Source: Trypanosoma brucei
Lineage: Eukaryota
Length of the DNA stretch: 64,000 nucleotides
Assembly (NCBI GenBank): GCA_000002445.1
Contig: CP000071.1
Span: forward strand, 544,001-608,000
Direction: 5' to 3'
The notes beneath the pieces were generated by a model. The model was not told where the DNA came from. It did not search any database and worked only from the letters and a program-made list of their open reading frames with translations. A program made the position numbers and the translations under genes. Shown in pieces: positions 6,786 to 47,865 of this stretch; position 1 is the stretch's first letter; each line of letters begins with the position of its first letter.

Positions 6786-7022
6786 TCGTACCTTTCTTTC
6801 TTTGCTTTAACTTATGATGCAAAGCAAATAAACAGCGGGGGAAACCTCGTCTCAAAATGTGATTTTGCGTGAACGACCGTTTTCAAGCGTCATCCACTGA
6901 CTCATATCCCCGTTTCCTCATTTTCCTCCTTTTTGTTTCTATTCCGTTACACCTCCGCTTCGCTCGTGGCATTCTTCCAGTGAGCGCACTTACGATGGAT
7001 GGTGGAGGAAGAATATAAATGT

Positions 7023-10500: not shown

Positions 10501-11011
10501 CGATAGGCCCACACATATTGGGAAAAGCCCTACCAAATTTGGAAAAAGAGATCTAAAGAGTATGATCCTTTAGTAGAGTTTTAACCAAAACGTCGTTGAT
10601 TGTGAAGTAACATTCGGAGGATGAACGTGAATGTCGCTCAAATAAAGCAGATCTTCGCTTTTAGCAGCCCCAAGCGATGCTTGTTATTTCATTGGCGGCA
10701 AGCATGTCTAGGCAACTGTTGCTTTTCTTTGTACTGCCGCCAAGCTTATCGTCGGAAAATCTTTATGGGAATATATTGTCCGTAAAGCGTGCAGCCCCAT
10801 GCTGAGCCGTTCAGTCGGTAATACACATTACGCTGCATTCTCTTGCCTTCCACGGTTGTTCAAATACAACCGAAAAGGCGCGTCATTCAGGGATGGCAGC
10901 TCCGGGTCATGAGGATGGGATGCACCTCCACTGGATACAAACACACATACCGTATAAAATATGCTGTGAGAGCCGGCTCTACCGTTTTTGCCGACCGATC
11001 GAGGCGCTCAT

Positions 11012-11395
11012 CTATACATCTCGCGTGTTGAAAAAAGCGCCCAACTTTCTCGGCTCATACGGTATTTCGTACTGCTTTTTCTTGAGGTTGCTCAGTCTTT
11101 CGAGGAATACACAATTTTCTTGGTAGGCGTCACCAAGCTCAATGAACCGCTGCCTTTCTGCAGCACCCAACGCCCCCAGACTCAACTCCTTCAGAAATAG
11201 GGAGTTCATCTCGTTGCAAAACTTTTGTCGTTCCCCCTCCACTTTTTCCTTCATCCTCCCGAGTACATCTTCGACCTCCCACATACGCCACCGACGGTCA
11301 GGTGTAAAGGTGCGTCTTCTAACCTCGCTGTCCCTTCCCAAAAGGCAATAAGTCAGCATAACACTTTGACTAACGACCCGGCGAGGAACAAACAA
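11012..11395 (-). CDS. Small hypothetical protein (127 aa or shorter), charged and helical. It may be the last gene of the minus-strand transcription unit.
   Basis: This ORF looks more protein-like than its neighbours in the strand-switch region (…ERQKFCNEMNSLFLKELSLGALGAAERQRFIELGDAYQENCVFLERLSNLKKKQYEIPYEPRKLGAFFNTRDV). I recognise no family. Confidence 0.3.
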   Translation of the reverse strand: MFVPRRVVSQSVMLTYCLLGRDSEVRRRTFTPDRRWRMWEVEDVLGRMKEKVEGERQKFCNEMNSLFLKELSLGALGAAERQRFIELGDAYQENCVFLERLSNLKKKQYEIPYEPRKLGAFFNTRDV

Positions 11396-26367: not shown

Positions 26368-28236
26368 CTACAAAAGGTCCTGCCCCATTTGTGCCATAAG
26401 CGAAACCAGAGGCTGAAAACGACCCTCGCCGTTACCGACAAATCGCTCATCCGACACAGATGTCGACTCTTGAAGAAGAGAAATGAGATCCTGCCGCAGA
26501 GCGCCTCGAAGCCCCTCGTTTGTTGTGTACAAAAACACCTCCACCTCCACATCTCTGTGGACGGAGCGGGACCCGTAATTTGTGCTGCCGTAAGACACCA
26601 AATATGGCTCTCCTACATGATCCCACGTTTCTTCGCAGTTAACGACATCATTATTGTTTGCGCCACCAGCGCAAGCGCTGCTAATTCCCACTCTTCCCAC
26701 CGGGGCACCACCTTGTTTCTGATCCTTCATGAACCAAAGTCCTTTCGCGTGGTATGTCTTTCCCTCCGCACTGAACTCGTGCAAGCGGATACGGTGTGCA
26801 CACTTGTATTCCTTCATTAAGTAACGGAAGGCTCGCTGCAACTGCAGGTAGAAGTAAGGTATGTACCGAGCGAAGCCTTTCGAACCGTACCATCCATTTG
26901 TACTGACGCTAGCAGTTATGAAATCGTAGGGGCTACTGCTGGCAAGTAACTCATCGACAAAGTGTCCATACATATTAAGATAAGGTGAGGCCAAGTAGAT
27001 GTGCGTCGACCGTGGTGCCATCCTCAGTAACATTTGCACGATGAAGGAATCGTGAAAAATGTTGGCGCGTGCACACTGCATGGTCGGGAAGAGAAGAGTA
27101 TCGTAGTGTCCCGTCGCTTCATCTTCCATCTCTGGGTGCTGCTCCACTTGCCACGCTTCCGCTGCTACAGCCCCGGAACTATGTGCGAAGTCCCGCAACC
27201 TCCTCTCAGCTACTTCACAGAATTCGTACCACTGCGTCGATGGATCCACGCCTGCCATATTAGGAAAGATGGTAAGGTTACTCCCCGCATGCACCACGAA
27301 CTCCCCACTACTCGAATTCGCATTCTGTCCCCATTTCTTCGTATCACCACAACCCGCAACGGTCGCAGAACCCGCATTCGTGTTACACTCCTTGTGGATT
27401 CCAACTGGATACGATAAAGCACAAAGAGCGTCAACGAGACCACTGAACCACGCAGCGACGTGAGGGTTGTCGTGCACAGCCAAATAGCGGTCAACACGGG
27501 TGTCGAAATAGTCGTCGGAAAGGTTCGCCCCGGTGAGAATCGTCTGGCAGTTGTCGAAGCAGAATATTTTGGTGTGTTGTACCCCAAGCGCCTCACGAGC
27601 CCTGCCGAATGGGGCCACGAGCCAATTCCAGCGACACGGCGATTGGAACAGAAAGAGTCGCACGTTCACAGCAGAGTCGGCACCAGGGGACGCCGCCTCA
27701 GATTGGAGGTTTAGCAGTTCTGCTACAGTCTTTAGGTTTTGCCGAACGTGCATCCGATTGTAGTCCAGAAGAATGCACACATCGAGTGCCTTTTTGTCGC
27801 TACGAGCCTTCGACACCCGGTTTCTCAGCGCAGTGACAAGCTGTCGGGCGAGCGGACCATCGCCAATATACAGCGCAGACAAAACAATACGATGTTGGGC
27901 TGCACTGATTTGTCGCAGCAGCTCACTAAAGAATTGCTTCGGGCCGGCCAACACCCGCAGATCTTTACCACGCGCAGGAAGTGTGCAGCACGTTTCTCCA
28001 AGGAAACGCAACATCTCTGCCTGCGGACCATCAGTAACAACACTGCTGGCGCCCCTCGTTCTTCCCCCCACAGTGACCTTGTTGTCAAGCGCGTGGAAAA
28101 GAGTGCCATTAGAATGGCAAGTAGAAGTCTGCACAGAACCACTCAGGCTGAAGAGACGAAAGGCCAGAAGCAGCGACGTACCAAACACGAGTGCGTAAGC
28201 GAGAAGAAAGAGCATTGTTTGTTCCCTTTTCACCAA
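26368..28236 (-). CDS. Phospholipase-D-superfamily phosphatidyltransferase, most like the eukaryotic PGS1-type phosphatidylglycerophosphate synthase
   Basis: Two HKD motifs (HTKIFCFDNCQTILTGANLSDDY and HAKGLWFMKD....GISSACAGG). There is an N-terminal hydrophobic or presequence-like segment. Confidence 0.7.
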   Translation of the reverse strand: MVKREQTMLFLLAYALVFGTSLLLAFRLFSLSGSVQTSTCHSNGTLFHALDNKVTVGGRTRGASSVVTDGPQAEMLRFLGETCCTLPARGKDLRVLAGPKQFFSELLRQISAAQHRIVLSALYIGDGPLARQLVTALRNRVSKARSDKKALDVCILLDYNRMHVRQNLKTVAELLNLQSEAASPGADSAVNVRLFLFQSPCRWNWLVAPFGRAREALGVQHTKIFCFDNCQTILTGANLSDDYFDTRVDRYLAVHDNPHVAAWFSGLVDALCALSYPVGIHKECNTNAGSATVAGCGDTKKWGQNANSSSGEFVVHAGSNLTIFPNMAGVDPSTQWYEFCEVAERRLRDFAHSSGAVAAEAWQVEQHPEMEDEATGHYDTLLFPTMQCARANIFHDSFIVQMLLRMAPRSTHIYLASPYLNMYGHFVDELLASSSPYDFITASVSTNGWYGSKGFARYIPYFYLQLQRAFRYLMKEYKCAHRIRLHEFSAEGKTYHAKGLWFMKDQKQGGAPVGRVGISSACAGGANNNDVVNCEETWDHVGEPYLVSYGSTNYGSRSVHRDVEVEVFLYTTNEGLRGALRQDLISLLQESTSVSDERFVGNGEGRFQPLVSLMAQMGQDLL

Positions 28237-30025: not shown

Positions 30026-31858
30026 CTAGTGTGTGGGAGTCTTCGCCATCTTCCGCACGGGTTGGGCATTCATCAACTCCACTGGATGAATTGTGCCGCT
30101 GTTGTTTCCAGCTGACAGCAACGCTGTGCGTGCTGCCTTCGACATCTCGAAGTTTCGCAGCAGTGCTGCCCTGCAAACCGCAGACTCTCCACAGAAGGCT
30201 TGTGCGAGCAACCAGTCACGTGGGGCATTATTCCCTGTTCGTGTGAGGGCTGCCGTAGCGCGGTACAGAACCGCTACACTCGCGAACACCTCGGCGACGT
30301 ACTGAGCGGTAGTGCGTATGAACGCCGCATCGCGACGGCGCTCCCCCTCTCGAAGGAGCTTCAAAAAGGTCGCAACATCCCCCTCCAGCTCGTTGGCGCT
30401 TAGACGGAGGTACACATGAGGCGAAACGAGCCGCGGGACGTCTGACGGCGCGCTTATCGCGCGCATGAAAAGCGAAGACCCGATGCCTTTGCTAACCGAC
30501 CCGGCAGCGCCCTGCAGACCACTTTCAGTATGCAAAAGTAACGGTGCGATGTATCTCTGGTGCTGTAAGCTGCCACGAAACGAGAGAGCTGCAAGTATCT
30601 GAGATTCGTCACGCACCATCCGCACAGCATACGCATAGTCTATAAGTCGGTCTGGTTTAGAGGCATGCGGCACACCGCCCTGTGGGTCCAGCTGTAGTAC
30701 GCCGTTAATTACCTCACGTGTCAGCTGGAGAGCCGTTGCAAGCGCCTGGCCGGCGTACGTGCTGACAGCAACACATTCTGCCAACGGTGGATGTCGTGCG
30801 TCGCCCACCTCATTCTCTTTACTGTCGACAGGATTTGTGTCCTTTGCCAGTTGGCTCGGGTCATCCGCACTGCAACCTACTACAAAGGATGTCAGAGCGT
30901 CTATGCCATAGCGGCTGCAAGCCATGGCCGCCAAAGCCTTCTGTACGAACGGGTTGCGTATAAGTAAGGCGTCGTGACGCACTGCGTGGGTAGCATGCAG
31001 AGCACATATCTCTAGCAGCCGGTCTATCATCCCACTGCTGGCGGCCGCCGCGAGAAGGTTGTGTTCTGCCGTGAAGGCGTCCACAGCGGCAGCTGAGTTG
31101 GAGACTATTGCCGCCTCAGCACCACTCAATGTTACAGTGCACAGTCCGCCAGTTGCAGGGCTAACACTGATATGTCCGCCTGCCTGCTGCATTGGGAGCG
31201 ACAAAAGTAGCGGTTCGCGGTTGCTTGCCGTGCCCTTCACCTGATCTTCCTTTCCGCACTCCTGAGAGGCGAGGAGTTGCATGGTTTTGGGTATTGAGCC
31301 AGGTGCGGCAATGGCGATAAACGAGCCGTGCAGCACCACTTTGCGGCCCGGTTCATTAGATCCATCGCTGCCGAGGGCCACGCGGACGTGGTCCTGTGAA
31401 TTTGGTGGGGCGCGCCATTCAGTGGCGGCTGTGCCAACATCAACAGGCCACATCACGGGATGTGCAGACCGCTTTGTTGCGGTACGCACGGCGTCACACC
31501 TCTCGCGCAGGAGCGACCGCTGCGATGGCGCTGTAACCGGAGACTTTGCAGTGGTAAGCTCAGCCGCCTTCCCTGAGGATTTTTCTACATCGCTAGCGTT
31601 AACCTTGACGCCATCTGTATTACCATCTTTTTTTGTTGCTGCGGGCCCAATGCCATTGTTATCATTGGTATCGGTGATGGCCGGCTCCGCGCCGAAGTGC
31701 TGGAAAAGCAGGACATCTACCAACCGCCCCTGCGTGAGAAGCGCCGCCACAAAGTCTGGGCGGGCACGAAGAAAGAAACCTCGGCGCATCCCAGTAAACA
31801 ACAACAATAACAACAATACAGGACTTAAAGTTAGTAGTGTTGTGCCCGACGATGACAA
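30026..31858 (-). CDS. Hypothetical protein (610 aa) with an N-terminal hydrophobic signal or anchor
   Basis: Long Ala/Leu-rich ORF co-oriented with the cluster. No family recognised. Confidence 0.55.
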   Translation of the reverse strand: MSSSGTTLLTLSPVLLLLLLFTGMRRGFFLRARPDFVAALLTQGRLVDVLLFQHFGAEPAITDTNDNNGIGPAATKKDGNTDGVKVNASDVEKSSGKAAELTTAKSPVTAPSQRSLLRERCDAVRTATKRSAHPVMWPVDVGTAATEWRAPPNSQDHVRVALGSDGSNEPGRKVVLHGSFIAIAAPGSIPKTMQLLASQECGKEDQVKGTASNREPLLLSLPMQQAGGHISVSPATGGLCTVTLSGAEAAIVSNSAAAVDAFTAEHNLLAAAASSGMIDRLLEICALHATHAVRHDALLIRNPFVQKALAAMACSRYGIDALTSFVVGCSADDPSQLAKDTNPVDSKENEVGDARHPPLAECVAVSTYAGQALATALQLTREVINGVLQLDPQGGVPHASKPDRLIDYAYAVRMVRDESQILAALSFRGSLQHQRYIAPLLLHTESGLQGAAGSVSKGIGSSLFMRAISAPSDVPRLVSPHVYLRLSANELEGDVATFLKLLREGERRRDAAFIRTTAQYVAEVFASVAVLYRATAALTRTGNNAPRDWLLAQAFCGESAVCRAALLRNFEMSKAARTALLSAGNNSGTIHPVELMNAQPVRKMAKTPTH

Positions 31859-32441
31859 TTTACCCTAAGCTTATTTCCCACTACACCCGTTACTCAGCCT
31901 AGGTTTGGTTCACCCACTTAAACCCGGGCGGTGCTTTTCTTTGGCTGTGCGTATTTATAAGATCATCCATCCATACAAGGAACAAAACAGCAAAAAACGA
32001 AGTGAAGGAGAAACAATATAATAAATTTCAGGAAATGAAAGTTTCCGCACGAAACGGAAAAGAAGGCCCACCACGGCGTAGAGCAGCGGTCACATAATGC
32101 GCTGAGTGTTCCCTTCACCGTGAACTGTCTGCCTGTGCCGGCTACCTTAAATAGGGATCGGATTGGTTGGCGTCGTCACACTTTGCATACGTAAACGTAG
32201 CACCTGCGCTTATTTCATCGTCTTTCCCTTTTCCTTCAGCGGAGTTGGACAGGCAACGCCGGAAAACAAAGTGGATAAATAAATAAGGGGATAGAAAGGG
32301 AGAAAATAGGTGAGGACGGGCACACACGAAACACCCACATATGTATATATATATATATATGTATACGTTCCACCATTTTCTAGCTCCTTTTTTTTTCTTA
32401 TCTTTCCCCTCTCCCTCAGCCACACATACTCCAAATCTCAT

Positions 32442-32822
32442 TTAGATATCATCAGTAAGATCCAACTTCACTTTCCCGTCAACTGCGTTATCAAAGGCAG
32501 GCATACCGAGGTACGGGCAGCCGGCGCAACGAAAGGCATCCCCCTTCGCGCAGTTCCCGCAGCCTCCTGGTGGCATGGCGCCCATCACTTGACTTCCACC
32601 GGCCTCCAACTGCCGCTCCAACTCGGCTCGGCCGCAGGTGCAGTTCTTACAAGCCCGGCGCCGTGTCGCACAGTCCAACTTTTCAACCGTACTTTTGGCC
32701 TCACGATCCTCAGCTGTAAGCAAATCATCCTCATCAATTGGTCGTCGTGTTTTGAGACTGAAGGCCTGTGTGGAGTTGGCGGCGTTGTGGGATGTTGATG
32801 GAGCGGGGGATGACATTCTCAC
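32442..32822 (-). CDS. Anamorsin/Dre2 (CIAPIN1) Fe-S cluster assembly protein. Short form: only the linker and C-terminal Cys-rich domain.
   Basis: C-terminal CIAPIN1 signature CKNCTCG...[23 protein letters not shown]. Only 126 aa. Confidence 0.75.

Positions 32823-32893: not shown

Positions 32894-32932
<39 letters not shown>
32894..32932. repeat. (TA)19 microsatellite followed by a T9 run
   Basis: A direct read gives tatatat...×19. Similar shorter (TA)n tracts occur at 16208-16228, 29061-29100, 32341-32360, 34296-34330, 38233-38258, 39238-39262 and 52921-52940. Confidence 0.95.
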
Positions 32933-32940
<8 letters not shown>

Positions 32941-35690
32941 CAATGCTAATTTCCCCTCCCCTCTAATTATACGAGAGTTTGCACTAGTACTTCGTCAACC
33001 ACGTACGACGCTATTTGTAAGAAAAATATCCGAGTTTCAAGACTAGAACTGTATTTTTTTTTTTTTGCGGTGTATGTGTTTGAACACAATGTGCCACTAT
33101 CTGTGTTGAAGGGTCCACATTAAAAAACAATAATGACAACAAGGGATGAAAGAGGTGAACAAAAAAAAAATCCGTATATTCAGTCAAGCTGCAGTGGCAT
33201 TTAAATGAAGCACTGTTGTGTTCAAACACATCATCACTAAAACACGAAACATCTTTTTTTTTTAAAAAAAATAGAGGGATGTTGTGAGGCGGAACCACGA
33301 ACGCGAGTGGCGCATGTGAACAAAATTTGAGGAACTCTGATTTTGGAAGGGCAACAGAGTAAACACAATAACAGAATGGGAAATGCTTCTCTAAAGGCAT
33401 GCCGACACATGCGCTTTTGTCGCTATTCACGTAGCGGGATGTAAAGAGCAGCTCAGATTGCGCTATGGGAGTGATTAAACAAATAAACACACAAACACAC
33501 AAAAAGCCACACGAAAAAAAAAAGAAAGGCAAGGAGACAATGAAAAATGTGTAAATCAGTCGCTCCTCCATCCTTCTTTTTTTTTTTTTACAAAAAAAAA
33601 ATTATTTTTATTTTCCTTCCCAGACTAATCTCAAACTTTTCAACCCACCACTCGTCCTCTTCTTCCCTTTCCTTTTCTTAACCACACATTTATCTATTTA
33701 TTCCGCACCACCTCATTATTTCACATCTCCCTATTTGTGAAGCCACCTTTTTTTTTTTAAAAAAAACATTAATGGAGAACTAAGGGAGCCAGCGACACTG
33801 CTAAAATATAAGTGCATAAGTACAACTGCGTATAGTCGTGCGAAAAAAAAAAAGAAAAAAAAACACACACATGTCAATGGGCAGACGGGCCAAAAGGAAG
33901 AGGTCTAAAAAAAAAAAGGAAAGAAGCAGGAAAAACATAAAACATAAAATATAAAACACAAAACATAAAACAGAAAAGAAGAAAAAGAAACAATGAAAGG
34001 CACAACTGATGAAGGATGAACAGCGCACTTCACGATAAGAAAGGAGAGGAATATCCCATTAAGAGATGAAAGAGGAAACAAATACAGCACTGTTTATCAT
34101 AACACCTTTTCCACACCGTCTTATTCCCCACTAAGATGCATTACAAACGCAAATAAATGAAAACGGATGAAGCGGGTAATTGAGGAACAAAAATGTCAAT
34201 GATGGGCACTCAGATCAGCGCGTAGTGATGTAAACAGATCATACACACAAAGCCAGAACCAACAAGAACAGCAAAAAAAAAAAAAAGAACACGAGTATAT
34301 ATATATATATATGTATATATATGTATGTATGTTAGGCAATCCACCTTTCGCTGGTAAAAAACCTTTTTCTCTCTCTCTCTCTCTGCGTCTTTTTTGTTTT
34401 TTTTTTCCTCCACGTAGCTTCATCAAGTGTTTTAAAAGCATTTTTTTTTGTTTTTATCTCCTTTTCCTCCCATAATTTCACATCGCAGATATGTGGTTGA
34501 TGCAAAATTCCACCACACTTTCGACAAGTTCCCTTCCGTATGCTCACAAACTTTCTGTCGCTTTGTGACTTTACTCTCTTAAATTAAAACAATTCTTCAT
34601 GCAAGTGCCCACCCTTGACGTTGCCTTAGCTGTATGCCTTTCCTGTCAATTTTTTTCTTTTTTTTCTTTTTGTTGACTTGCCGCCTTCTTTGTTACCCTT
34701 TTGTTGCATTTTCCTTAACATTTCAACGTTTCACTCCGGTTTTTCTTTCTTTTTCGTTTACTTCTTGACCCCTTTTCTTTGACTGTTGTTGTTGTTGTTG
34801 TTGTCGTTTCTCTCCCCTTCTTTACTTCTCCGATCATCAACGCATTTTTCTTCTTTTTTTTTTATTTTATTTTATTATTTTGCCTTACGGAAATTACACC
34901 ACAGGTGGAGGAACACACAATGAACAAACTTATCAAGCAGTAAATGGCCCTAAAAAGAAATATTTGGATAATCGCCGCACATTTAAGGATTACGCCTCCC
35001 CTGTCATTTTTTTTCTCTTTTTTTAATTTTTTGACCTGCCGCCGCCTTCCACGCGAAACGCATCGCGGAATTCCCTTCGTTTGTTTTCTCTCACATATGT
35101 GACATATATTTTTCTCTTTATTTTATTTTTGTTATTTTTAAATGATGAATTGACAGCGATGTTGCATAGTGTGAAGTAAATGGATCAGTACCCAACGCGC
35201 AACTAATCCCCCACTTCATCAGGGACGAAGTTGCGTAAATAATTGAATAACAAAAGTAAAAAAAAAAAAGGACAACAAACTACCTTCCGCTCCAACGTTT
35301 GAAAAAGATAAGAAAAAAAAAATTAAAAAGTGACGAAAAAAAAAAGAGCCGTGTTGTGAGCCTCTTCATTCACCCACTCCGATAATCATGAGATGAACAG
35401 AAAACAAGAGACCAAACAAACAACAATAATAAAAATAATAGTAATAAAACAACAGGGGAAACTGGTCTCTCAGAACAGAAAACACCAATCCAACAACGCT
35501 AATTAAACAAAAAGGAGTTAAATATCGTGGAGTAAATTAGAATCAAAAAAAAAAAAGAAAAACTCGAAGATCATGGATAGTAGTAATAGTAATAATGATA
35601 ATAGTAAAATATAACAAAAAAATCTATTGTTCATATATATATATTTCCTTCCTTCTGATCTCTTGGTTTCTCTCTTTTTTTTTTCCACGA

Positions 35691-37271
35691 TCAGGACTGC
35701 TGTGTTGCGTATGGATGGCACATACGCACCTCCGGTCCCAAAGAAATTCCCTCCGCAAAGTCCAGCACCCCAACCTCTTCTCCCTCTGCAAATTGATACG
35801 GTGCTGTTTGAATGCTTGGTCTGGCGTAATATTCCTCCACACACTCTTTTTCCCTTTCTTTATTACCTTCAACTCCATCTTCCAAACTTGTTGTTAATGC
35901 TACTGCCGACGTTACCGGTGTTGGTGATAACAAACCGCTTGTCATGACCCCACTGTTGGTTATTGGCCGCTCTCTCCGTCGTATCACTCCACAATGCTTG
36001 TAGAGATCCACAATTAATTCACCACAGCTAATTTCATTTCCATGTGGCCGCCCACCCACCCATTCATAAAGCCGCGGGTGAATGTAACTAAGCATCAGGG
36101 CGGAATTCGTGTCCAGAGGGCGCCCAACGTTTTCGTTGATAAACTCACGGAGAAGGCGCTTGCGTTGCGGAGTCCACTCAAAACCTTTCAATCGGCGCAC
36201 GGCAAAACGGCGGTAGCACCACTTCTCGTCGTGCCGCCCAAAGAGACGACGACTCGCTTCCACCAGCTGAACACAATTGTGTCGCACGTGGCCATTAACA
36301 TCAGGTGCATTGACATCAATGTTGTCAATGGCCTCCATAATAACCGCCCCACGCCTCGGTCGTCGCTCAAACAGCGACTGTCCTTCACCCATGATTCCTG
36401 CTGAGAGAGGCCTAGTCAACAACATACCACCGTACTCCGCATTTACGCTGTCAGCAATGTTGCCATCAACACTATTATTGTTACTCCTGCTGCTACCATT
36501 ATCACTGTTGTTGCGGATGTCATACGCAAAGCTTGTTCGCCTCGAGCGCAACCGGTCAAAATGCGCAGGCTCCACTACAACAGCTACATGCGAGTATCGC
36601 AATGCTGCGGCACGCATACCACTGTAGACATACTGTGCAGCAGTTATCTTTGAGCTGATTTCTCCAGTTCCCATCATGAGGATGATGTCCCCTTCACGAA
36701 GTGTTGGCTCCACGAGGGACCATTCTTCAAGTGGGTGCTCCTCCAGTGGGCTGAAGAGACGTCCCACCGCCTCCTGCTGCCGCCACCACAAAGCGAGACA
36801 CAACACCACATAACTACAGCACCCCAAAATACACGCTGCTGCCACAATCAAACACTTTCTTCCGCGGCACTGGGAGCAAAATCGGTTCCATCCGCTACGG
36901 AATGGGCGTAACACACTGAAACGTCCTAGTTGCTGTTGCTGTTGCTGTTGTTGCTGTTGTTTTGAGTATTGATGCTGATGCTGATGTGTTTGATGTTGCG
37001 TTTGCGAATGGTGATGCTGCTGTTTGTGATGGTAATGATGTGGTTGATACTGTGACTGTGTCTGTGAATGATGCTGATGCTGCTTCTGATGTGTTAAGGG
37101 GAACGAATTTGTGGCAAATGGTGCGATCGATGGGCGCAGTAACGCGTTTTGTGAACAACCTAAATGGATGAAACGACGGCTGTCGACGCGTGGCGCGTGG
37201 AAAAACAAACCCCGTATGCCCCATCGCCGCTGCTGCTGGATGAACAACCCCATCACCTCTACACTATGCAT
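35691..37271 (-). CDS. Membrane-anchored protein with a YiiX/YaeF-like permuted papain-fold (peptidase C92-like) domain and a His/Gln-rich N-terminal region
   Basis: The motifs align with E. coli YiiX: GDIILMMGTGEISSKI...RYSHVAVVV matches GDIIF..SRSSQSKAI...YSHTGMLV, and later ISCGELIVDLYKHCG matches YCSEVVWKVYQNALG. One TM helix (CLIVAAACILGCCSYVVLCLALWW) precedes the domain. Q10 and HQ repeats come from a CAG/CAA/CAC microsatellite. Confidence 0.5.
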   Translation of the reverse strand: MHSVEVMGLFIQQQRRWGIRGLFFHAPRVDSRRFIHLGCSQNALLRPSIAPFATNSFPLTHQKQHQHHSQTQSQYQPHHYHHKQQHHHSQTQHQTHQHQHQYSKQQQQQQQQQQLGRFSVLRPFRSGWNRFCSQCRGRKCLIVAAACILGCCSYVVLCLALWWRQQEAVGRLFSPLEEHPLEEWSLVEPTLREGDIILMMGTGEISSKITAAQYVYSGMRAAALRYSHVAVVVEPAHFDRLRSRRTSFAYDIRNNSDNGSSRSNNNSVDGNIADSVNAEYGGMLLTRPLSAGIMGEGQSLFERRPRRGAVIMEAIDNIDVNAPDVNGHVRHNCVQLVEASRRLFGRHDEKWCYRRFAVRRLKGFEWTPQRKRLLREFINENVGRPLDTNSALMLSYIHPRLYEWVGGRPHGNEISCGELIVDLYKHCGVIRRRERPITNSGVMTSGLLSPTPVTSAVALTTSLEDGVEGNKEREKECVEEYYARPSIQTAPYQFAEGEEVGVLDFAEGISLGPEVRMCHPYATQQS

Positions 37272-37297: not shown

Positions 37298-37350
37298 CTC
37301 CTCCACTTCCACTTCCACTTCCACTTCCACTTCCACTTCCACCTCCACTC
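37298..37350. repeat. (CCACTT)n hexanucleotide microsatellite, 6-7 units, immediately upstream of the YiiX-like gene start
   Basis: cctccacttccacttccacttccacttccacttccacttccacctccactcc. Confidence 0.95.
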
Positions 37351-38232: not shown

Positions 38233-38264
<32 letters not shown>

Positions 38265-40140
38265 TACAATAATACGTGAAGGGGAAAGGGAGATAAAACG
38301 AAGAGACAGAAGGAATCCGCGTTCATTGAACGGCTCGCCGGTGCTACACATGTTTCCGCAAACCCCCCCCCAAAGTAAATATCACAAAGAAAGCAAAACT
38401 GCAGGAGATCAATGAGAAAAAACAACAACTGAAGACTATCGATGAAAACGTGTGACTCTCAGCACACGGCAATCATGTCACTACTGCTTAGCGAAGGAAA
38501 AGGTGAACGGGGCGTCTCCGTTTTATCACCGATGAAAAGCGTGTGGATGGAGCGCGGGTGAAATGAATAACCACAAAAAACTAGAAAAAAAAGACTTTTT
38601 TTTCCGGAGGAGGGGGGAGTTGGAGACAAAAAGGCACATTTGTTGTCGCAGAAGCGGTTCTGGTTCCTTTATGTCAGGCCTCGTTAGATTTTAAATCACA
38701 CATTTTCTCTTTACCAACCGTATATCCCTCTTACCTCAGCTCTACCGCACATATATCATATACAACACACATGTACATGTATGCCAATGAGAGGTAGGGA
38801 GATATGATACGTGCATGATGGGAAATTTAGCTAAAGGGGCAACAGGATCAATTAAAGAGGACAAAAATAAAAAAAGAAAAAAGAAAAAAAAAATAAGGGC
38901 GGTCTCCCTCATGGAAAGTAAATGCACCGTCCCCCCAACACCAGTGGATGGTTGGCGCAGTTTTGTGCCCTCGACGATAACAACGAGTAGTGTGACGTGT
39001 TAAAAGCAACGCAAAACAAAACAAAACAAAGAGAGAGAGAGATGACTGACCAAACTGAAGGAGATGCAATAAATATCAAAGGAAAGCGGAGAATTCCGCA
39101 AACCGAAACACTTCGCCCCCCCGCCTCCCTCCCTTTCTTCCCTCTTTGTCTTTCGTGTAATCCCCATTTCACATTTCTGTTCCATATTAACTTTTCTCCA
39201 AGCCCCTCTCCTCTCCTCACCTCCCCCACAAAAAAATATAATATAATATATATATATATATATTTAACCTTTAACTCAGTCGCCATTTTCCCCATCCATT
39301 TGCTTTTCCTTAAGTCCATGCCGCGCCTTCACAGAGAAGTGAGTAAAACAAGGAACATAAGAAGAGCCCAAAAGCCTCGTAATAGGTTTGAGCATTCGCA
39401 CACATGACGTAAATAAATAAATATATGTGTACATATATATGTAAAGCAAAGAGAGAGAGAAAGAAAGTCAACGACGCGAACGAAGCAAAATAAACATAAG
39501 GAAGAAAGAAGGGTAGCTGCGCATCGCACATTTACATGCACACCCACGGTGTCGAAACAATAAAAGCAACAACACTCAAAACAAAGGTAAAAAAGAAAAA
39601 AGAAGAAATATAGAGGGAGAAATACACATGGATTAAGAAAAATATGGAAGGGAAAGATGACTGATGGGTGGCTTGTAAAGACAAGATAGTGTCTTTTACA
39701 TTCTACTTCGCCACCTTTCCCCTAAAGGAGGTGGAAATCACACATAAGGACGCACATGCGCAGTAGAATGACCCCGATTGCACATAATAAACCCTCAAGT
39801 GTTAACGCAGCAGAGTTCAACACCGGAGATGAAGGGTAACTAGCAAGTTATACTGAGTTCTCCCTTTCTCCCCCCCCCCACGCACACATATATGCCTGTT
39901 GAAGCTCGTCTATGACGAACCAAAAGTACAGAATTCAATCTGTACGGCACCATTTTCCCCTGCTCATCTTGAACACGAGTAGTGGTAACTCTCATTATAT
40001 AACCAACTGTTTAGCCTGAACTGCTTCCCACTAACTTGGGCTTTACAACTCAACGCGGCAATTTACCCTAGACATGCGTACATAAAATACCGCACAAGAT
40101 AAATGATTTGTTTTTTTCTAACTGTGTCTTTACGCCCTTT

Positions 40141-42480
40141 TCAGCGCTTTTGAAGGTTTGAGCACCCCGCTGTATGGAGTTCTAAATACGCCTCAATCGA
40201 AAAGGTCGTCGTCCACTGTCTGAAGAATGGGTGACTGAGTAGCTCCCGTGCGGTGGGACGGCGCCGAGGTTCGGGGTCCATGCAGGAATGAATAAAGTCC
40301 AGAAATGCGTCACTGAGAGGCACATCTCGGGGGAAACGGCGGAGATCCAACGGCTCTTCCATACGGTGAATCGTTACAAATGGGTCCGCGCAGTCCGTGA
40401 GGTCAACGGGGTATTGTCCAACAGCGAACTCCGCCAGCGTCATGCCAACCGCCCAGATGTCGCTTGGCTTCCCGTGAGGCCTTCCCCGCTGTCGCTCGGG
40501 GCTCATATACTTACTTGTTCCGGAGCATTGCGGATCATCTCCAGTGGCTGCACCGCTTTCACTAGCGGACGCAACTCCCACGAGGGGTGGTGATTCGTAG
40601 CCACTGCCCGTGTGAATTCCGTTTATGCTGTGCCCATAACCGTTACCACTCATGTTACTGGCGGCATCGCTCTCAAACCCGTTGTCAACACTACCACGTT
40701 TGTTGTTAACGCGTGGGTTGCAGCGCCTTTCCTCGCACGAGTCGTCTCTGCTTTTAATTTTGACGTCAGCACCAGTGTCACCACTCGCGATAAAGTCTGC
40801 TGGGAAGTGGGGAAGCGACACAACACTTTCCTCTTCCCCTGTACATCGAGAGGATAACCCAAAATCACCAAGTTTCACTATTCCTCTGTTGTTGATTAGG
40901 ACGTTACCAGGTTTAATGTCACGGTGGACGAAACCCCTGCTGTGCATATGTTCCACACCGCGCAGAAGCTGCTCGCCCACCACGGCAACGAGCCTCTCAG
41001 GTACTGAAACCACTTTTCGCTCATCCTTCGCATCCACTTCACTTTCCCTCATTTCCTTTTCCTCGGTCATGCACACCGCCCCATCGCCATTGTGACGATT
41101 GCTACGATTACGTCGCCTCGCACCATGCGTGCCACCGTTTTGGTTCTGCCGCTTTTTTGTCCTACTACCGCCCGCACTAACGACTTGACAGTTCACATCG
41201 TTGCCGGTACTTACACCGTTAGACACGTCGTTATCCGTGACATAACCACCGAGTAATCTCTGCAACCGGTCCAGACCGCCGTAGTGCATGTATTCCATCA
41301 CAAAGTCGAGTGCCATTTCTTCTTTATTAAAGAACGCGTTGTACACCTTTACCATGAATGGGTTCCGGTAAGCCATATGAAGTGTTTGGAGCTCACGCAA
41401 AACAAAGCGGTGAAGCTGTCGGATGTAAGGCGATGCCCGCACACTGTGCGTACGGCAAATGTTCATATGTTCCCATCCATAAATCATCGAGGAGAGGTCA
41501 ATGCGTTTGACGGCGAGCAACTTCCCAGTGGGATAATGTTCTGCCATGTACACGTTTGCCGACGCCCCCTCACCCACAATTGACTTTAGTTTGACATCAC
41601 TGTACTTTACAGCGGTAAGACCAGGTTCATTGCTGCTGCTGGAGTCGGCGTTGTTGGGGGGGAGCACGGAGGGTGACGGGAGATTAAAGCTTGGCATGAC
41701 GTACGTGTGCGTTGCGCTATCACCACCAGCGGCAGCAAATGTGGGTCGCGGTGTGGTAAACCCCGAAGTTTTGGCGTTATGGGCATTTAGCGAATATGTG
41801 ATGGGGCTGTATGGCGTGTCGAGGCTAGTAGACAGTAGCGTAAAAGAGTTGTTGGACAGTGGTTCCGTCGTTAACGAAAGCTTTGGCTTCAGCAGCGCCC
41901 CGGGTACTGAGCGACGACCGTGTGAGCCCAATGGGGCTGGGGAAACTTCCCCTCCGTGAATCCCAAGATTTGCATTGAGTTGCAAGACACTTTCCATAGT
42001 GAGACACCCATCACCAGAAACAATAAAGGGACCAACATGTAGATGCTGACCATCATCGGACAGCGATATCCACTGCGCCCGCGGGTGGTGACCAAAAAAG
42101 TCTTCTGGAGCCAACATATTGAGTGAAGCCACCGAGGCACCAGCAGCGGTGCTGCACGCGGAGCGGTTCAGTAAAGGTGGGCGCAACTGCTGAAACCGGT
42201 CCCGTTTGGGTGTAACAGTGCTGGAAGCATGGGCTGTGAGCTGTAAACTGGAGGGAATGTGAAGTGGCTCTGTAGGGGGAAGCAATGACGGTGGAGTTAA
42301 GGAGAAGAGGGGCGGCGGCCGCTGCTTCACTTGCCGCCCTATTGCTGTTGCGGAGAGCACACCGTTGCAGCTACTGGGCGACTCCTCCGGGTTGCTCGTG
42401 ACGTTGTGTAACTGAGCACTAGCGCATGAATATATATTTCCGGGTATACTTCCATCTACCGTAGCAGTTTTATGGTCCAT
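40141..42480 (-). CDS. MAP kinase kinase (STE7/MEK)-like protein kinase, 779 aa, with a long N-terminal extension and large kinase-domain insertions
   Basis: VGEGASANVYMAEH...AVKRI, HRDIKPGNVLINNRGIVKLGDFGLS, GTSKYMSPERQRGRPHGKPSDIWAVGMTLAEFAVGQYP. These match the MEK consensus HRDVKPSNILVNSRG.IKLCDFGVS and GT.SYMSPER...SDIWS.G.SL.E.A.G.YP. Confidence 0.75.
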   Translation of the reverse strand: MDHKTATVDGSIPGNIYSCASAQLHNVTSNPEESPSSCNGVLSATAIGRQVKQRPPPLFSLTPPSLLPPTEPLHIPSSLQLTAHASSTVTPKRDRFQQLRPPLLNRSACSTAAGASVASLNMLAPEDFFGHHPRAQWISLSDDGQHLHVGPFIVSGDGCLTMESVLQLNANLGIHGGEVSPAPLGSHGRRSVPGALLKPKLSLTTEPLSNNSFTLLSTSLDTPYSPITYSLNAHNAKTSGFTTPRPTFAAAGGDSATHTYVMPSFNLPSPSVLPPNNADSSSSNEPGLTAVKYSDVKLKSIVGEGASANVYMAEHYPTGKLLAVKRIDLSSMIYGWEHMNICRTHSVRASPYIRQLHRFVLRELQTLHMAYRNPFMVKVYNAFFNKEEMALDFVMEYMHYGGLDRLQRLLGGYVTDNDVSNGVSTGNDVNCQVVSAGGSRTKKRQNQNGGTHGARRRNRSNRHNGDGAVCMTEEKEMRESEVDAKDERKVVSVPERLVAVVGEQLLRGVEHMHSRGFVHRDIKPGNVLINNRGIVKLGDFGLSSRCTGEEESVVSLPHFPADFIASGDTGADVKIKSRDDSCEERRCNPRVNNKRGSVDNGFESDAASNMSGNGYGHSINGIHTGSGYESPPLVGVASASESGAATGDDPQCSGTSKYMSPERQRGRPHGKPSDIWAVGMTLAEFAVGQYPVDLTDCADPFVTIHRMEEPLDLRRFPRDVPLSDAFLDFIHSCMDPEPRRRPTARELLSHPFFRQWTTTFSIEAYLELHTAGCSNLQKR

Positions 42481-44910
42481 TTGAATGTGTCTTCTTCTGC
42501 CCGCTATTCCGTGCCGAGGCCGAAAGGTATCGGATAACCAAACTTGGTGAATGAAAGAATCACGCCCACTGCGTATATATATGTATATATTCTAAGATAT
42601 TTCCTTCGTTTCTCTCCACCCGTGAGCGCGTGTGCGTCCTTGCACCACGCCTCCCTTTCCTTGCCTTCGACTTTCCCCGTGTCTTCCTCTGTATAATCCC
42701 TCAAATCCACTTTTCTAATTCAGTTTTTTTTTTCTGCTCTCCTCGGAGATTACAGTGGGTCCAGAGGTTAGATAGAAAAAAGGAGAGAAATGGAATGACA
42801 TCCAATCAGAGAAGAAGGAGGAGGGGGAGGGGAGGAGGGATATGTATGTCGCAAACAATCTCGACTTAAAGAATGACAACAAGCCCGAAAAAACAACACA
42901 ACAACGAAAACAACGCCACTGGATAACACAGCAGTCAGCGGACGCTTATGGTACACTTTGAGTCAAGAAGGACGAGGAGGTGGATAACGAAAACAATCAA
43001 ATCAACATCATCTTCCCCCCCTTTTTTTTCTCGCTACCTTTCTTTCCATATTTCTCCGTAACCGTGCATTACCGTTGTCATTTTCGTCGTATGTAGTTTC
43101 GTATTAAAAAAAAAAAAAGACACCCCTTTCATGGCATCCTTCCTTGTGTCTCACTCTTTAATTTACTGTCTTTCTTTTCTTTTCTCTTTTCAGTTGTTGT
43201 TCAATTTCCCATCGTTACGATCATTCATTAATATGCGCTGCCAGTCCCGGCTGCAGTTCTTGTAGACACACACCGACAAAAAAAAAAGGAATAAAGAAAA
43301 AAAAAACAGAGATTATGGGATAATTGTGTAAAAACACCGCGCTGAATATCATTGTCTAACAAGCTTTTCCATATTCTTATTTCTTCACCGATGTCCACAC
43401 ACTCTTTCCCCACTTCTTCCCGCTGTTGTACAACCGTTGCGCATTCAACGAAGTAAAGTTAAAAATATGTGAGGGTTGAGAGAAGGGAAAAGAGATGAGG
43501 GTTGAAGAAAACACATGCACACAAACTCCCACGTGTGTGCATACATTATGTGTGTAGTAGATGTGTACATATAAATGCGTACAAGTACATGCAACTACAT
43601 ACATACATGTACATATATGCATATATATGTATATATGTATATAAATATTTATTTATATACACTTGTTTGTGTGATTGTTGACCAAACTTCCTGTTTCATG
43701 GCATTACCACACGCCCTTGAGAGGTGCTGCGGCGCCGGAATATGTAGCCTCCTTTTTTGCCTCCCATTCACTCACTCATTCATTCATTCAATCATTTTTT
43801 TTTCTCGTGCATTTTGCTCATTGTATTTTGTCACGCGGCAGAACCCCAGGGCTCATGTGAAAGACGAAACCAAAGGAATTAAAAGCGTAAGTTATAAAAT
43901 GATAGAATGAAGTGTGGGGAGGGAAAAAGGGATTTTTCTTTTTTTTTTTTTAAAAGGGGGAGAAAGTGCCAAAGAGCAAAGTGAGCAACACCAAGAGAAA
44001 TAATAATAATAATTATTATTATTTTTTGAGACTCACACAAACAGGGTACAGTTTCCAACGGCCTCAATAAAAAAAGAGTGCGTGGATAAGGGGGGAAAAG
44101 AGATATTAAACAGGGGAAGAAATAAATAAGAAGGAAAAAAAAAACAAAAGTAGATCAGGATGAAAACATTTCCCTTGAAATATATTTGTCTTGACAAATC
44201 CAGAAGATGATATAAGCCCCCTCACAACACCCATTACCCATTTCGGCCTTTTACAACAGCACACAAAATTAGGCAGTAAATTCCCCGTTTCGAGCCCCCC
44301 CCCCCCAAAAAAATGCGTTTCGGCCCCTCAACTCCCGGTTGTGAATGTCGTGGTAATAACGATAAAAATATTGAAATAATAATGAAAATCAAAGTAGTTA
44401 TGAATTAAATATACCTACGCTCGCTCTCTTCCTCTTCCTCTTCCTTTCCCTCTCCCTCCCTTTTCATCATTTCTATATTTTGATCACTTACTGAATAGTT
44501 CTTTTTTTTTTTTTTAAGTCTGAACAATGGGTTGCCAGTTCAATCGGCATAATATAATTTCGGGTTTGGTATCAACTTGGCAGTTACGTTACCATCACCC
44601 CAAATCCTCCCCGTTTCATCACTATTTTATTTTTCCCCCTTCTTGATTTCTGTATGTTTACATTATTTACCATATTCGCACCACCTCATCCGCTACGTAA
44701 GTCACAGATGTGTCTGCTGCCTCTAAGTACCTTTAATCGCGTTTATACATTTGATGAATTCATTTACAGTTGTACATAACTTCACATTACCTCGGAGAAA
44801 AATAAAATTAATACAAAAAAAAGAAAAAAGACAGTTGTACATCCGTACATATATTTAATATATATATATATATATGCCTGTTCACTTATACGCATCTGTA
44901 CACCGAAATG

Positions 44911-45381
44911 TCAGCGGAGCAGGCGACAACCCGGAGTAAAGAACTGCATCCTACTGGCATCCGGCACTATACGCCAGGAGCCAATATTAATACTGCGGAA
45001 CTCTTGGCAGCAGGCACACGGGGCACAGCAACAGAAGACACAGAAAAAGTCACCAATGATATTCCCAGATGTGCCAGTACGCTTGCGGAGGTTGTAACGT
45101 GTGAACCAGCGGGCGCATGGACAAAGGAGAACCATGAGGCAATGCGGCCAAACGGAACACACATCGCCCAAACTCGACGCATATGTTTTGCACAAGATAC
45201 AAGGTGAACAGAATAAACAGTTGAAGATGCAGAGAAGTGCGTTGGCAAAATCAGGGGCGCCGCAGCAGGGCGCCAATCGCCAAAACTCCCAAACGAATCC
45301 GGCGGTACCATTCCAGCCGCATTGGTCAAAGCCAATGATACCGAGGAACCCCGTACGGTTAATCTCAGCGCAAAGAGACAT
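44911..45381 (-). CDS. PLAC8 (FCR/cell-number-regulator-like) cysteine-rich small protein, 156 aa
   Basis: Cys-rich pattern CLFCSPCILC...LLCPCARWF...GDFFCVFCCCAPCACCQEFRSI. This matches the PLAC8 CCxxCxxxQ..RE C-terminal motif. Confidence 0.5.
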   Translation of the reverse strand: MSLCAEINRTGFLGIIGFDQCGWNGTAGFVWEFWRLAPCCGAPDFANALLCIFNCLFCSPCILCKTYASSLGDVCSVWPHCLMVLLCPCARWFTRYNLRKRTGTSGNIIGDFFCVFCCCAPCACCQEFRSINIGSWRIVPDASRMQFFTPGCRLLR

Positions 45382-45981
45382 GACTTTGGAAAAGAAGTGC
45401 GCGCTTAATTCCCCTTAGTTGAAAAAAAAAGGGGGAAAAATAACTGAATGTTGACGCCGCGGCAATGTTGTGTGGCCCTTCTTAGCGGGTGCTCTTTCAC
45501 CCTTTTGTATCTACTTGGGGTACAAATGGGCAAGGTGTTGTTAGATGTCTGTCCACTTCGCAACCTCAAAACGTTTAGTCAAACCTTCGCCACAAAAAGC
45601 CTATGCAGGCAATAGTGATAACTTTTGTTTTTTCGATAGCTTGTCTGCAGATGAGAAGGTGTGGGGGTGGTTACGGGATGTACAAGGTAGAGTATGGCAG
45701 TAGACGAAATACAACTTGACGAAGAAGCAACCAAACATCACGGCAAAATACGTGTAAAGTTACCTATAAAGAAGGGAAGTAAAATACCAAGAATAATTTA
45801 TACGGTGGACCACATAGAAAGAAGAATTATATGTAGGGTGGTAGTGACGAGAGAACCCGTTGCGGCACGTAGCAAAACTGACGAAAGGGAAGAACATATG
45901 GACAATTAAGCGTACATGCAAACAACGACAAGGGTCATATGTGTATACATGTACTACTACATAGGCCTTGCCTTTCCATCA

Positions 45982-47865
45982 CTAACGCCGTAACTTCCCC
46001 ACCTGAAGGTCGAAGGGATCGAGTGTCATGAGGGAGCATAGAAATGAGGTGAGTTGAAGCACCTTCGCAGTCCCATGCATGGGTTCCTCGCCGCGTTGCT
46101 TTCGTACTCGCGGGGGAGTTGCGAGTGGCGATACGCCATGAAGTTGACTCCCTACAGTGTTTTGCCACTTTGAGTACTGACATTCTCCCGCACAAGATTC
46201 GGCGCTGAGCATCGATCGCACAACAAATCGCATGGACACACTGTGGATGAGCTCCGACATGAACACCTTCAACAACATCACAGCAACAAGGACAAGCAGC
46301 AACAGCAATGGAGCGTTTCTAAAGAGTGCGTGAGCGATAGGTGAAAAACTCCACAGAAGGAGTGCGGCGTATGGGACCGGAACAAACCCCGTCCGTCGAA
46401 CATATTTGGGGAAAAAACCATCGCTCGGCCGCAGCAGTTTGCGCAAATCCTGAGAGTCGTACAGCGCACTATCCACACAGCAGGCTCGGATATGCGTGAG
46501 TCGCCACAGCACCGTTTCCGCAGCCATATCGATAAGGGTGAGTTGCGTGAAACTTCGGTAGACGCTAAGAGAAATACCATTGAACTTCGCCACGAAGAGA
46601 TGCTTCGTAAAATCCACTGCTACTTCCGACAGAAGTACAAAAAGTGTATCGGCAAAATCCAGACCACAGAAGCGTTCGTGCATGTGCTGCATAACCATAA
46701 CAAGTACAAACAAAAGGAACTTCACGCGCTCAATTGCGTCTGCTGCCGCTACAGAGTACAATGACTCCCTGTTGTGTTTTTTGTACACAGCCCCCTTAAG
46801 TTCACTCAAGCTGCTGCTGACGATGAGAGTAAGAAGCAAATTCCCTTCCGAGTTAACTGCAACGTTGAGCGTTACAACAGAGAGCAGCAGTACAACAGCA
46901 TGAGCAGCGACACTCACCACAGCCACGACAGCGCTCAGCACAGGGAGCCACGTGGCGGCGAAGCGCTCACACTGCTCACCACAGGTTTGTGCGGCTCCCC
47001 GCCAATCCCCCACACACGCCGTGAGCACCTCCGTCGCCTCGTGCGAAAGCGCTGACAACAGCTTGTCGGCAACTTCCAAAATGTTGAAGACCATCATGAG
47101 CTTGATGAAAGAAGTGCGACGCACAGCATGATAGAGATACGCATAAAGCTCCACGGTCTTGAACGACAGGAGAGTGTAAGTAAGCACACCTACGACGATG
47201 AGCACCAAAGCCACTGCATCCCGCCGCTCAAAACGGTGCACACTAACGATCAACTTGAGTGGAAGAATCAGAAGCGACAGAAGATTCTCCACCATGCCAA
47301 GTATTGTGAGGGCAAAAAAGTACTCAATGTCAACGAACATATCGGGCATACGAACAAAGTGCCGAAGCTGCTTAACGAAGCCTATGTCCTGTTGCCCGCA
47401 CATGGTGCTACCTTCGTGGCGTGAGGCATCGGGGCAGCGCTCCCGGTCTGACGGACCAAAGAGACTGCGCAGCAGCCGCGCTTGCATTTGGCAGGTAACC
47501 AACACCGGCTGGCGCGAGCCTCTAATGCTTTGGGAAAAAAGTGTTGGCCGCAGGAAGAGAGAAAAGGAGTAAAAAAGAGACAAGACGGTCATACAAGTGG
47601 CTTTGAGGATGCACACCTGAATGTCTGCAAGGATAGGAGTGATACAATCAAAAGGGATTGATTCCAAAAGCAGAGACACGTAACACCGGCCGCCATGCAC
47701 AATCACACATACCTTCCCCTGTGCATTCATATGACGAGAATGCAACTCAAACCCCGTAGGGAGCAGTGAGCAGTCTCGTTCGAGACGTAGCCACGTGTAA
47801 ACAGATGATCCGAAGAAGGTGGTGCGGCAACAAACATACAGGATCCGATACGGAGGGTGGAACAA
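45982..47865 (-). CDS. Polytopic membrane protein, TAPT1/DUF747-like. The ORF is 627 aa. The true start is probably an internal Met.
   Basis: Multiple TM helices. The segment SFIKLMMVFNILEVADKLLSALSHEA resembles the conserved IKLY.I.N.LEV.D.L core of the TAPT1 family. The N-terminal 60 codons look non-coding-like. Confidence 0.45.
   Translation of the reverse strand: MFHPPYRILYVCCRTTFFGSSVYTWLRLERDCSLLPTGFELHSRHMNAQGKVCVIVHGGRCYVSLLLESIPFDCITPILADIQVCILKATCMTVLSLFYSFSLFLRPTLFSQSIRGSRQPVLVTCQMQARLLRSLFGPSDRERCPDASRHEGSTMCGQQDIGFVKQLRHFVRMPDMFVDIEYFFALTILGMVENLLSLLILPLKLIVSVHRFERRDAVALVLIVVGVLTYTLLSFKTVELYAYLYHAVRRTSFIKLMMVFNILEVADKLLSALSHEATEVLTACVGDWRGAAQTCGEQCERFAATWLPVLSAVVAVVSVAAHAVVLLLSVVTLNVAVNSEGNLLLTLIVSSSLSELKGAVYKKHNRESLYSVAAADAIERVKFLLFVLVMVMQHMHERFCGLDFADTLFVLLSEVAVDFTKHLFVAKFNGISLSVYRSFTQLTLIDMAAETVLWRLTHIRACCVDSALYDSQDLRKLLRPSDGFFPKYVRRTGFVPVPYAALLLWSFSPIAHALFRNAPLLLLLVLVAVMLLKVFMSELIHSVSMRFVVRSMLSAESCAGECQYSKWQNTVGSQLHGVSPLATPPRVRKQRGEEPMHGTAKVLQLTSFLCSLMTLDPFDLQVGKLRR

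Follow-up and report, generated by a model that had tools for sequence, protein, structure and literature searches.

A single-pass membrane protein of Trypanosoma brucei with a divergent, kinetoplastid-wide domain of the permuted NlpC/P60 (YaeF/YiiX) type

The gene analysed here lies on the minus strand of a 64,000-nucleotide stretch of the Trypanosoma brucei genome (contig CP000071.1, positions 544,001 to 608,000; hereafter the window, whose numbering is used throughout). The only long open reading frame (ORF) within positions 35691-37271 is complete, starts with ATG and encodes 526 residues followed by a stop codon. We favour, with moderate confidence, the reading that its product is a single-pass membrane protein whose C-terminal domain represents a divergent branch, found throughout the kinetoplastids, of the permuted NlpC/P60 thiol enzymes (YaeF/YiiX type), with the acyl chemistry and location proposed below. 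The established parts of this reading are the fold, the permuted order of the catalytic residues, an invariant Cys416/His228/Glu313 triad, the S1' residues and a transmembrane (TM) helix with a basic N-terminal flank; homology ties the domain to the YaeF/YiiX family, whose mode of action it most probably shares. An earlier note on this DNA, made from the letters alone, had proposed such a domain, and its interpretation is supported, with qualifications that concern the Pfam test, the signature Tyr, the phage relatives and the flanks.

The homology was recognised through an intermediate family of small proteins. A HMMER profile search over 1.84 billion representative proteins returned kinetoplastid orthologues, then longer TM-anchored relatives, and then many proteins of about 200 residues that were matched in two stretches, the His region and the Cys region. 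When ten of these small proteins were scanned, eight matched PF05708, six of them above the gathering score, and a profile built from 22 of them matched the Bacillus cereus structure 3KW0 (E = 3.8e-22) and Escherichia coli YiiX (2IF6; E = 3.5e-11). Alignment of the kinetoplastid profile with the ~200-residue family by hhalign gave a probability of 99.7% (E = 4e-27) over 200 aligned columns and covered the whole domain end to end. The motifs of the two families fell in register (kinetoplastid/~200-residue): EGDIILMMG/TGDIVLFSG, YSHVAVV/WSHVGMV, IMEA/LWES, CVQLV/GVQLV, AVRRL/AVRRL, GRPLD/GRPYE, ISCGELIVDLYK/LFCSELVAEAYQ and PYQF...LGPEV/P.DF...LG.E. The permuted papain-fold assignment of the earlier note is thus borne out by alignment to a family that itself matches PF05708, 3KW0 and YiiX. 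The structural model has a papain-like alpha+beta core that can be superposed on solved family members, and its secondary structure (domain numbering) places His64 as the first residue of strand 64-70, Glu149 in strand 146-151 and Cys252 as the first residue of helix 252-262. The domain is circularly permuted: the catalytic-His strand belongs to the N-terminal sheet and the Cys stands at the N-terminus of a later helix, giving the order His228 to Cys416.

Active-site residues were mapped by counting positions through the 3KW0 alignment and carrying them through the hhalign alignment of the kinetoplastid and ~200-residue families. Alignment of the kinetoplastid profile to the single sequences of the B. 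cereus protein (BcPPNE) and YiiX was weak and partial but in register (E = 0.009 and 0.0015, respectively) and was used solely to confirm the mapping of the signature Tyr. The domain, its active-site residues and its two inserts lie as follows.

35706-36740, minus strand: permuted papain-like (YaeF/YiiX-type) domain, residues ~178-522, including the C-terminal alphaG-beta6 element (PYQF...LGPEV).
36588-36593, minus strand: Ser227-His228 (in YSHVAVV); catalytic His228, the first residue of a beta-strand, corresponds to BcPPNE His49, and Ser227 to the S1' residue Ser48.
36321-36335, minus strand: Glu313-Ala-Ile-Asp316-Asn317; Glu313 matches the triad Glu of BcPPNE (Glu64) and of YiiX, and Asp316/Asn317 match the S1' residues Glu67/Asp68.
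36114-36116, minus strand: Leu386 (in GRPLD) at the signature-Tyr position, corresponding to BcPPNE Tyr127 (in GYD) and YiiX Tyr115 (in GKPYD).
36024-36026, minus strand: Cys416 (in EISCGELIV), the nucleophile and first residue of a helix, corresponding to BcPPNE Cys154 and YiiX Cys128.
36369-36554, minus strand: disordered insert 1, residues 240-301 (predicted local distance difference test, pLDDT, < 50), which parts the His strand from the Glu strand and varies in length and sequence between genera.
35856-35945, minus strand: disordered insert 2, residues 443-472 (pLDDT < 50), which follows the Cys helix region and precedes the C-terminal element.

The triad codons were checked on the DNA (His228, 36588-36590; Glu313, 36333-36335; Cys416, 36024-36026). 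The two motifs singled out in the earlier note, GDIILMMGTGEISSKI...YSHVAVVV (residues 194-233) and NEISCGELIVDLYKHCG (residues 412-428), are indeed the catalytic His and Cys regions. The note had also proposed that conservation of the Cys and His be examined across kinetoplastids, and both residues, together with Glu313, Ser227, Asp316 and Asn317, proved to be invariant in all 26 orthologues, which come from Trypanosoma, Leishmania, Leptomonas and Bodo-like taxa. The Cys/His/Glu triad is also retained in most of the wider relatives. Glu313 aligns to the Glu of the 'ES' motif in the ~200-residue family and is separated from His228 by an 85-residue stretch that includes the first disordered insert; this insert is at least 60 residues long in kinetoplastids, whereas the His and Glu strands of the bacterial enzymes lie only 15 residues apart. 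The second insert exceeds 200 residues in Leishmaniinae.

The characterised relatives offer a chemistry for the domain. BcPPNE (BCE_A0238, PDB 3KW0; PF05708 / MEROPS C92) holds a lysine at S1' via Ser48, Glu67 and Asp68, and YiiX was crystallised with a fatty acid in its hydrophobic S1 pocket (Xu et al. 2011, PMC3142127). The putative S1-pocket segments of the kinetoplastid protein, assigned from sequence (ISSKITAAQYVYSGM; SALMLSYIHPRLYEWV; the beta1-beta2, alphaD-alphaF and alphaF-alphaG loops), contain many hydrophobic and aromatic residues. Staphylococcus aureus LnsA, a YiiX-like component of the lipoprotein N-acyltransferase, works at the membrane and uses a Cys/His dyad to move a fatty acyl group onto an amine by way of an acyl-thioester; its top HHpred matches are YiiX (2IF6) and 3KW0, and lipoprotein N-acylation strictly requires its residues His60, Cys143 and Tyr129 (PMC13559823). 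LnsA differs in requiring the membrane partner LnsB and in having its essential Tyr129, and its likeness to the trypanosome protein runs through YiiX and 3KW0 rather than through a direct LnsA alignment. By analogy, His228, oriented by Glu313, would take the proton from Cys416, which would then attack a fatty-acyl ester or amide at its carbonyl, the substrate being bound in a hydrophobic S1 groove. Hydrolysis of the resulting acyl-thioester would make the protein a deacylase of lipids or lipoproteins, or an amidase, and transfer of the acyl group to an acceptor would make it an acyltransferase; this would be the chemistry of the LRAT/PLAAT enzymes and of LnsA. The polar character of the S1' residues points to a leaving group or acceptor that carries an amine or a headgroup.

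The protein consists of a basic N-terminus (residues 1-60), a His/Gln-rich tract (61-114), a basic segment, a hydrophobic helix (140-163) and a C-terminal region of ~350 residues that contains both motifs, an arrangement that agrees with the earlier description of a domain behind one TM helix and a His/Gln (Q10) N-terminus. The parts that precede the domain are the following.

37092-37271, minus strand: N-terminal basic region, residues 1-60, with 7 Lys+Arg against 2 Asp+Glu, mitochondrial presequence-like and with a putative targeting role.
36930-37091, minus strand: His/Gln-rich low-complexity tract, residues 61-114, with poly-Q (Q10; 36930-36959) at its end.
36855-36929, minus strand: juxtamembrane segment, residues 115-139, strongly basic (net charge +7), the predicted 'inside' face by the positive-inside rule.
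36783-36854, minus strand: single TM helix, residues 140-163, CLIVAAACILGCCSYVVLCLALWW, conserved in orthologues.

The best Kyte-Doolittle 19-mer (2.62) falls within residues 140-163, and 25 of the 26 orthologues have a corresponding helix, the sole exception being an N-terminally truncated sequence. Across the orthologues the N-terminal flank of the helix carries a charge of +5 to +8 and the C-terminal flank one of 0 to -4, and the positive-inside rule predicts an N-in/C-out topology. The N-termini of the orthologues read MLRFTRR, MLRLTRH, MFRKTILR or MIRRTLCR, and those of the MLRFTRR, MFRKTILR and MIRRTLCR type resemble trypanosomatid mitochondrial presequences. Because of these presequence-like N-termini, and because the Leptomonas protein is labelled 'putative mitochondrial' in one source, the mitochondrial inner membrane is the most likely location, where the helix would act as a stop-transfer anchor and the domain would face the intermembrane space (IMS); this is the weakest step of the reading.

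Several results weigh against the reading of the protein as a mitochondrial acyl enzyme of the YaeF/YiiX type. One concerns the signature Tyr, whose column is occupied by Leu in seven and by Met in 19 of the 26 orthologues and by Tyr in none. Nearly all wider long-form relatives that were aligned also have a non-aromatic residue there (Leu, Met or another), a degenerate Angomonas copy has Phe, and the short phage-type relatives retain the Tyr. In the family, this residue contacts the P1 carbonyl, and in the YiiX structure Tyr115 hydrogen-bonds the head group of the bound fatty acid (Xu et al. 2011, PMC3142127); in LnsA the equivalent Tyr129 is essential (PMC13559823), and the signature Tyr is said to be essential superfamily-wide. 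The change to Leu or Met therefore implies that the oxyanion would be stabilised differently and that the pocket would be more hydrophobic. Backbone amides could serve as stabilisers, as could Tyr402, which lies 14 residues before Cys416, is replaced by His in Leishmaniinae (nine of 26 orthologues) and is a possible substitute for the signature Tyr. Catalytic residues have also been lost in some relatives: the Angomonas deanei protein P0058 (ADEAN_000968700) keeps YSHVAVVVEPA and has lost the equivalents of Glu313 and Cys416, P0057 has lost the Cys, and P0063 (791 residues) has Asn in place of the His and no Cys. These three may be pseudoenzyme derivatives; some lineages thus tolerate a role without catalysis.

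Direct searches for the family likewise tell against it. The hmmscan search of the full T. brucei protein against Pfam-A and NCBIfam gave no match to PF05708 or NlpC/P60 at E <= 10, the 27-bit gathering score of PF05708 thus not being reached, and phmmer of the full protein against all PDB sequences gave no significant match. The weak direct matches that did appear (Zip, CLN3, TFIIA and SepX) were rejected as noise from the low-complexity tract. Scanned one by one, the orthologues had PF05708 as the sole family matched by more than one member, in three of 26 and always below the gathering score; the best score was 16.9 bits (E = 0.0067) and covered only the Cys-helix part of the model. Excision of three low-confidence segments gave no PF05708 match for the T. 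brucei (E <= 1), T. cruzi and Leishmania constructs and just E = 0.03-0.06 for insert-excised Bodo-type constructs; the inserts alone therefore do not explain the failure of the Pfam model. A HMMER profile of the 26 orthologues had zero matches among PDB sequences at E <= 10. The direct Pfam match that the earlier note had proposed as a check was thus not obtained, and since the note would have taken the lack of a significant profile hit as a refutation, its own rule, read literally, would have wrongly rejected a correct call. The lesson is one of method: the direct Pfam scan fails where profile-profile and structure comparisons are unambiguous. Finally, literature and database searches for localisation, substrate or phenotype data on the gene found none, and the proposed mitochondrial targeting rests on the resemblance of the N-termini, while a type II protein of the secretory pathway, sharing the predicted topology, is a serious rival.

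In this type II version the domain and its chemistry would be the same, and the protein would be a signal-anchor protein of the endoplasmic reticulum, Golgi, endosome or cell surface with a lumenal or extracellular domain, where its substrates could be lipids of the secretory pathway or lipid-anchored proteins, for instance in glycosylphosphatidylinositol or phospholipid acyl remodelling. A lone TM helix flanked by basic residues on its N-terminal side and acidic ones on its C-terminal side is exactly the appearance of a signal anchor. The T. brucei helix lies some 140 residues from the N-terminus and behind a long low-complexity tract, which is not typical of a protein with just a presequence and a stop-transfer helix, and association with membranes is common among permuted NlpC/P60 enzymes (Xu et al. 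2011, PMC3142127). The presequence-like character of most orthologue N-termini and the mitochondrial label of the Leptomonas protein speak against it, and we regard a secretory location as possible, at clearly less than even chances.

An unlikely alternative is that the fold has been kept and catalysis lost, the protein serving as a structural or scaffold subunit of a membrane complex, analogous to NDUEG7, a TM-anchored IMS subunit of Euglena complex I. In the orthologues, however, six active-site residues are invariant across Bodo, Trypanosoma and Leishmania, a pattern not easily accounted for unless the protein catalyses a reaction; moreover, the kinetoplastid profile matched neither NDUEG7 nor any other PDB chain at E <= 10. 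Still less probable is a cysteine peptidase or isopeptidase directed at peptides or proteins rather than lipids, whether a peptidoglycan-type amidase or a PPPDE/DeSI-like deconjugase. That the motif resemblance is coincidental and the domain unrelated to NlpC/P60 is a view to which the insignificant hmmscan and phmmer results and the weak alignments to single BcPPNE and YiiX sequences might lend some colour, but it is already refuted by the hhalign match to the ~200-residue family and by that family's own matches to 3KW0 and YiiX.

Within the preferred reading of a divergent YaeF/YiiX-type acyl enzyme, the domain is nevertheless not filed as an ordinary member of that family, because the curated sequence threshold is failed and one of the four catalytic residues is absent clade-wide; the lineage-specific architecture, which combines a TM anchor and large inserts with an N-terminus resembling a presequence, adds to its distinctness. 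YiiX, in contrast to the kinetoplastid protein, has no TM anchor, no inserts and no helix of ~15 residues between the Tyr motif and the Cys. Poxvirus G6R (OPG091, which we take to be the vaccinia protein), the permuted papain-like amidases of giant viruses and the LRAT/PLAAT (HRASLS) proteins are far more distant from the kinetoplastid domain. According to Xu et al. 2011 (PMC3142127), LRAT and G6R each possess the full set of four catalytic residues, the Tyr among them. A literature search on OPG091/G6R yielded nothing informative. A close structural or sequence match to LRAT/PLAAT, an NCEHF-type Cys motif and a C-terminal TM anchor, as expected of a member of that group, were not found, nor was the sequence homology or complex I membership expected of a counterpart of NDUEG7.

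The closest non-eukaryotic sequence relatives examined are the ~200-residue proteins (e.g. P0077, P0073 and P0071), which have motifs in common with the kinetoplastid domain along its whole length (TGDIVLFSG, WSHVG, ES, GVQLV, VRRL, GRP-E/D, FCSELVA-Y, P-DF and LG-E) and differ from it in being short and soluble, in keeping the Tyr (PYE) and in having no inserts. Three of the closest occur in tailed-phage contexts (L001, 8001-8621; L004, 6001-6591; L005, 6001-6642), where Gp77 and DUF932, baseplate J and wedge, and an integrase with a head-tail connector are among the neighbouring genes, and tblastn of phage genomes found a copy annotated as 'permuted papain-like amidase' in Paraglaciecola Antarctic GD virus 1. 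The closest sampled non-eukaryotic relatives are therefore phage-borne and not poxviral, a distribution judged from the gene neighbourhoods on three contigs and from a single search of phage genomes.

All named members of the kinetoplastid family belong to Kinetoplastea (Trypanosoma, Leishmania, Porcisia, Leptomonas, Lotmaria, Novymonas, Phytomonas, Angomonas, Bodo and Cryptobia), are 'hypothetical' or 'uncharacterised' in every naming source and carry no precomputed Pfam domain. No literature linking the gene or its orthologues to the NlpC/P60 superfamily was found in the sources covered, which did not include Anantharaman & Aravind 2003 (PMC151301). One long-form relative lies on a 43-kb metagenomic contig with intron-less eukaryotic genes, all on one strand, a gene organisation typical of Euglenozoa. 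Another metagenomic protein, P0067 (432 residues), starts with MGNKSSS, which resembles an N-myristoylation signal, and has two apparent domain copies, a degenerate N-terminal one and a C-terminal one with PYE and FCSEMV; judged by these motifs, it could be a lipid-anchored eukaryotic member that retains the Tyr.

As a more specific and, in our view, rather doubtful scenario, a kinetoplastid ancestor would have captured a phage- or bacterial-type YiiX-like gene and added a mitochondrial presequence and a stop-transfer TM helix, so that the protein, anchored in the inner membrane and facing the IMS, would now be a lipid deacylase or transacylase with a remodelled oxyanion site that lacks the Tyr, for example a phospholipase that initiates cardiolipin or phospholipid remodelling. 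If this were true, the protein would be parasite-specific, without a human orthologue, and a possible drug target. The gene is conserved throughout the kinetoplastids that were examined, among them the parasites that cause sleeping sickness, Chagas disease and leishmaniasis, and the kinetoplastid protein has no detectable close human counterpart. The fold assignment with an intact Cys/His/Glu triad turns an unknown protein into a testable hypothesis, that of a membrane-anchored thiol enzyme acting on fatty-acyl groups. Bacterial YiiX-type proteins are poorly understood, and a eukaryotic clade with a natural Tyr to Leu/Met change and a defined membrane topology could reveal which active-site features are required.

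The 526-residue product is identical to TEOVI_000662800 of T. equiperdum OVI and differs by few residues from the proteins of T. brucei subspecies; the TREU927 orthologue is XP_847010.1 / Q582A5. These identities place the window on chromosome 8 of Trypanozoon, with which the TB8Cs2H1 cluster described below agrees. Gene models disagree on the start (Met1 or Met7; 37254-37271, minus strand), the TREU927 model having 520 residues and beginning at Met7. The His/Gln tract is coded by imperfect CAG/CAA/CAC-type repeats (36929-37091), as the earlier note had read them, and among the orthologues it is present only in T. brucei and T. congolense. The repeat-length polymorphism between strains that the note had asked about exists: this sequence and TREU927 have Q10, whereas T. 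b. gambiense DAL972 and a T. b. equiperdum isolate have a poly-Q of Q8. The tract is probably a lineage-specific microsatellite expansion on the N-in side, likely neutral rather than functional. The (CCACTT)n repeat noticed 5' of the gene was also found, in the following form.

37302-37349, no strand assigned: hexanucleotide repeat (TCCACT)x8, a rotation of CCACTT, with 95% matches, 31 nucleotides upstream of the ATG.

To judge from its position in the sequence, this repeat probably lies within the 5' untranslated region. The spacers on the two sides of the gene are 2,868 nucleotides long (to an anamorsin-like ORF ending at 32822) and 2,869 nucleotides long (to a kinase ORF starting at 40141), which agrees with the ~2.9 kb given for each before; their description as unusually long has to be softened to moderately unusual, given that typical spacers of the window measure 0.2-1.8 kb and that another long one (42480-45982) reaches 3.5 kb. 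No Rfam families were found in either ~2.87-kb flank. Both long flanks contain (TA)n/(AT)n microsatellites (32339-32365, 32894-32932, 34296-34330, 38233-38262 and 39236-39263) as well as poly-A and poly-T runs, and the dinucleotide repeats yield spurious low-complexity ORFs ('YIYIYIYI') on both strands.

Several neighbouring genes are related to lipids or mitochondria. Those on the minus strand at 26368-28236, 30026-31858, 32442-32822 and 49275-50504 encode a PLD-type phospholipid synthase-like protein, an ACAD9/ACADV-like protein, an anamorsin/CIAPIN1 homologue and a thiolase-like protein, respectively. A functional reading of the lipid-related neighbours (the PLD-type synthase, the ACAD9-like protein and the thiolase) was considered and rejected: trypanosome polycistrons are not functional operons, so co-location in a polycistron is no evidence of shared function and is uninformative here. 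Elsewhere in the window, within a stretch (4434-14245) devoid of ORFs of at least 200 residues, the trypanosomatid H/ACA small nucleolar RNA TB8Cs2H1 (Rfam RF01549, 78-82 bits) is present on the plus strand in four tandem copies, ~380 nucleotides apart, at 5817-7012.

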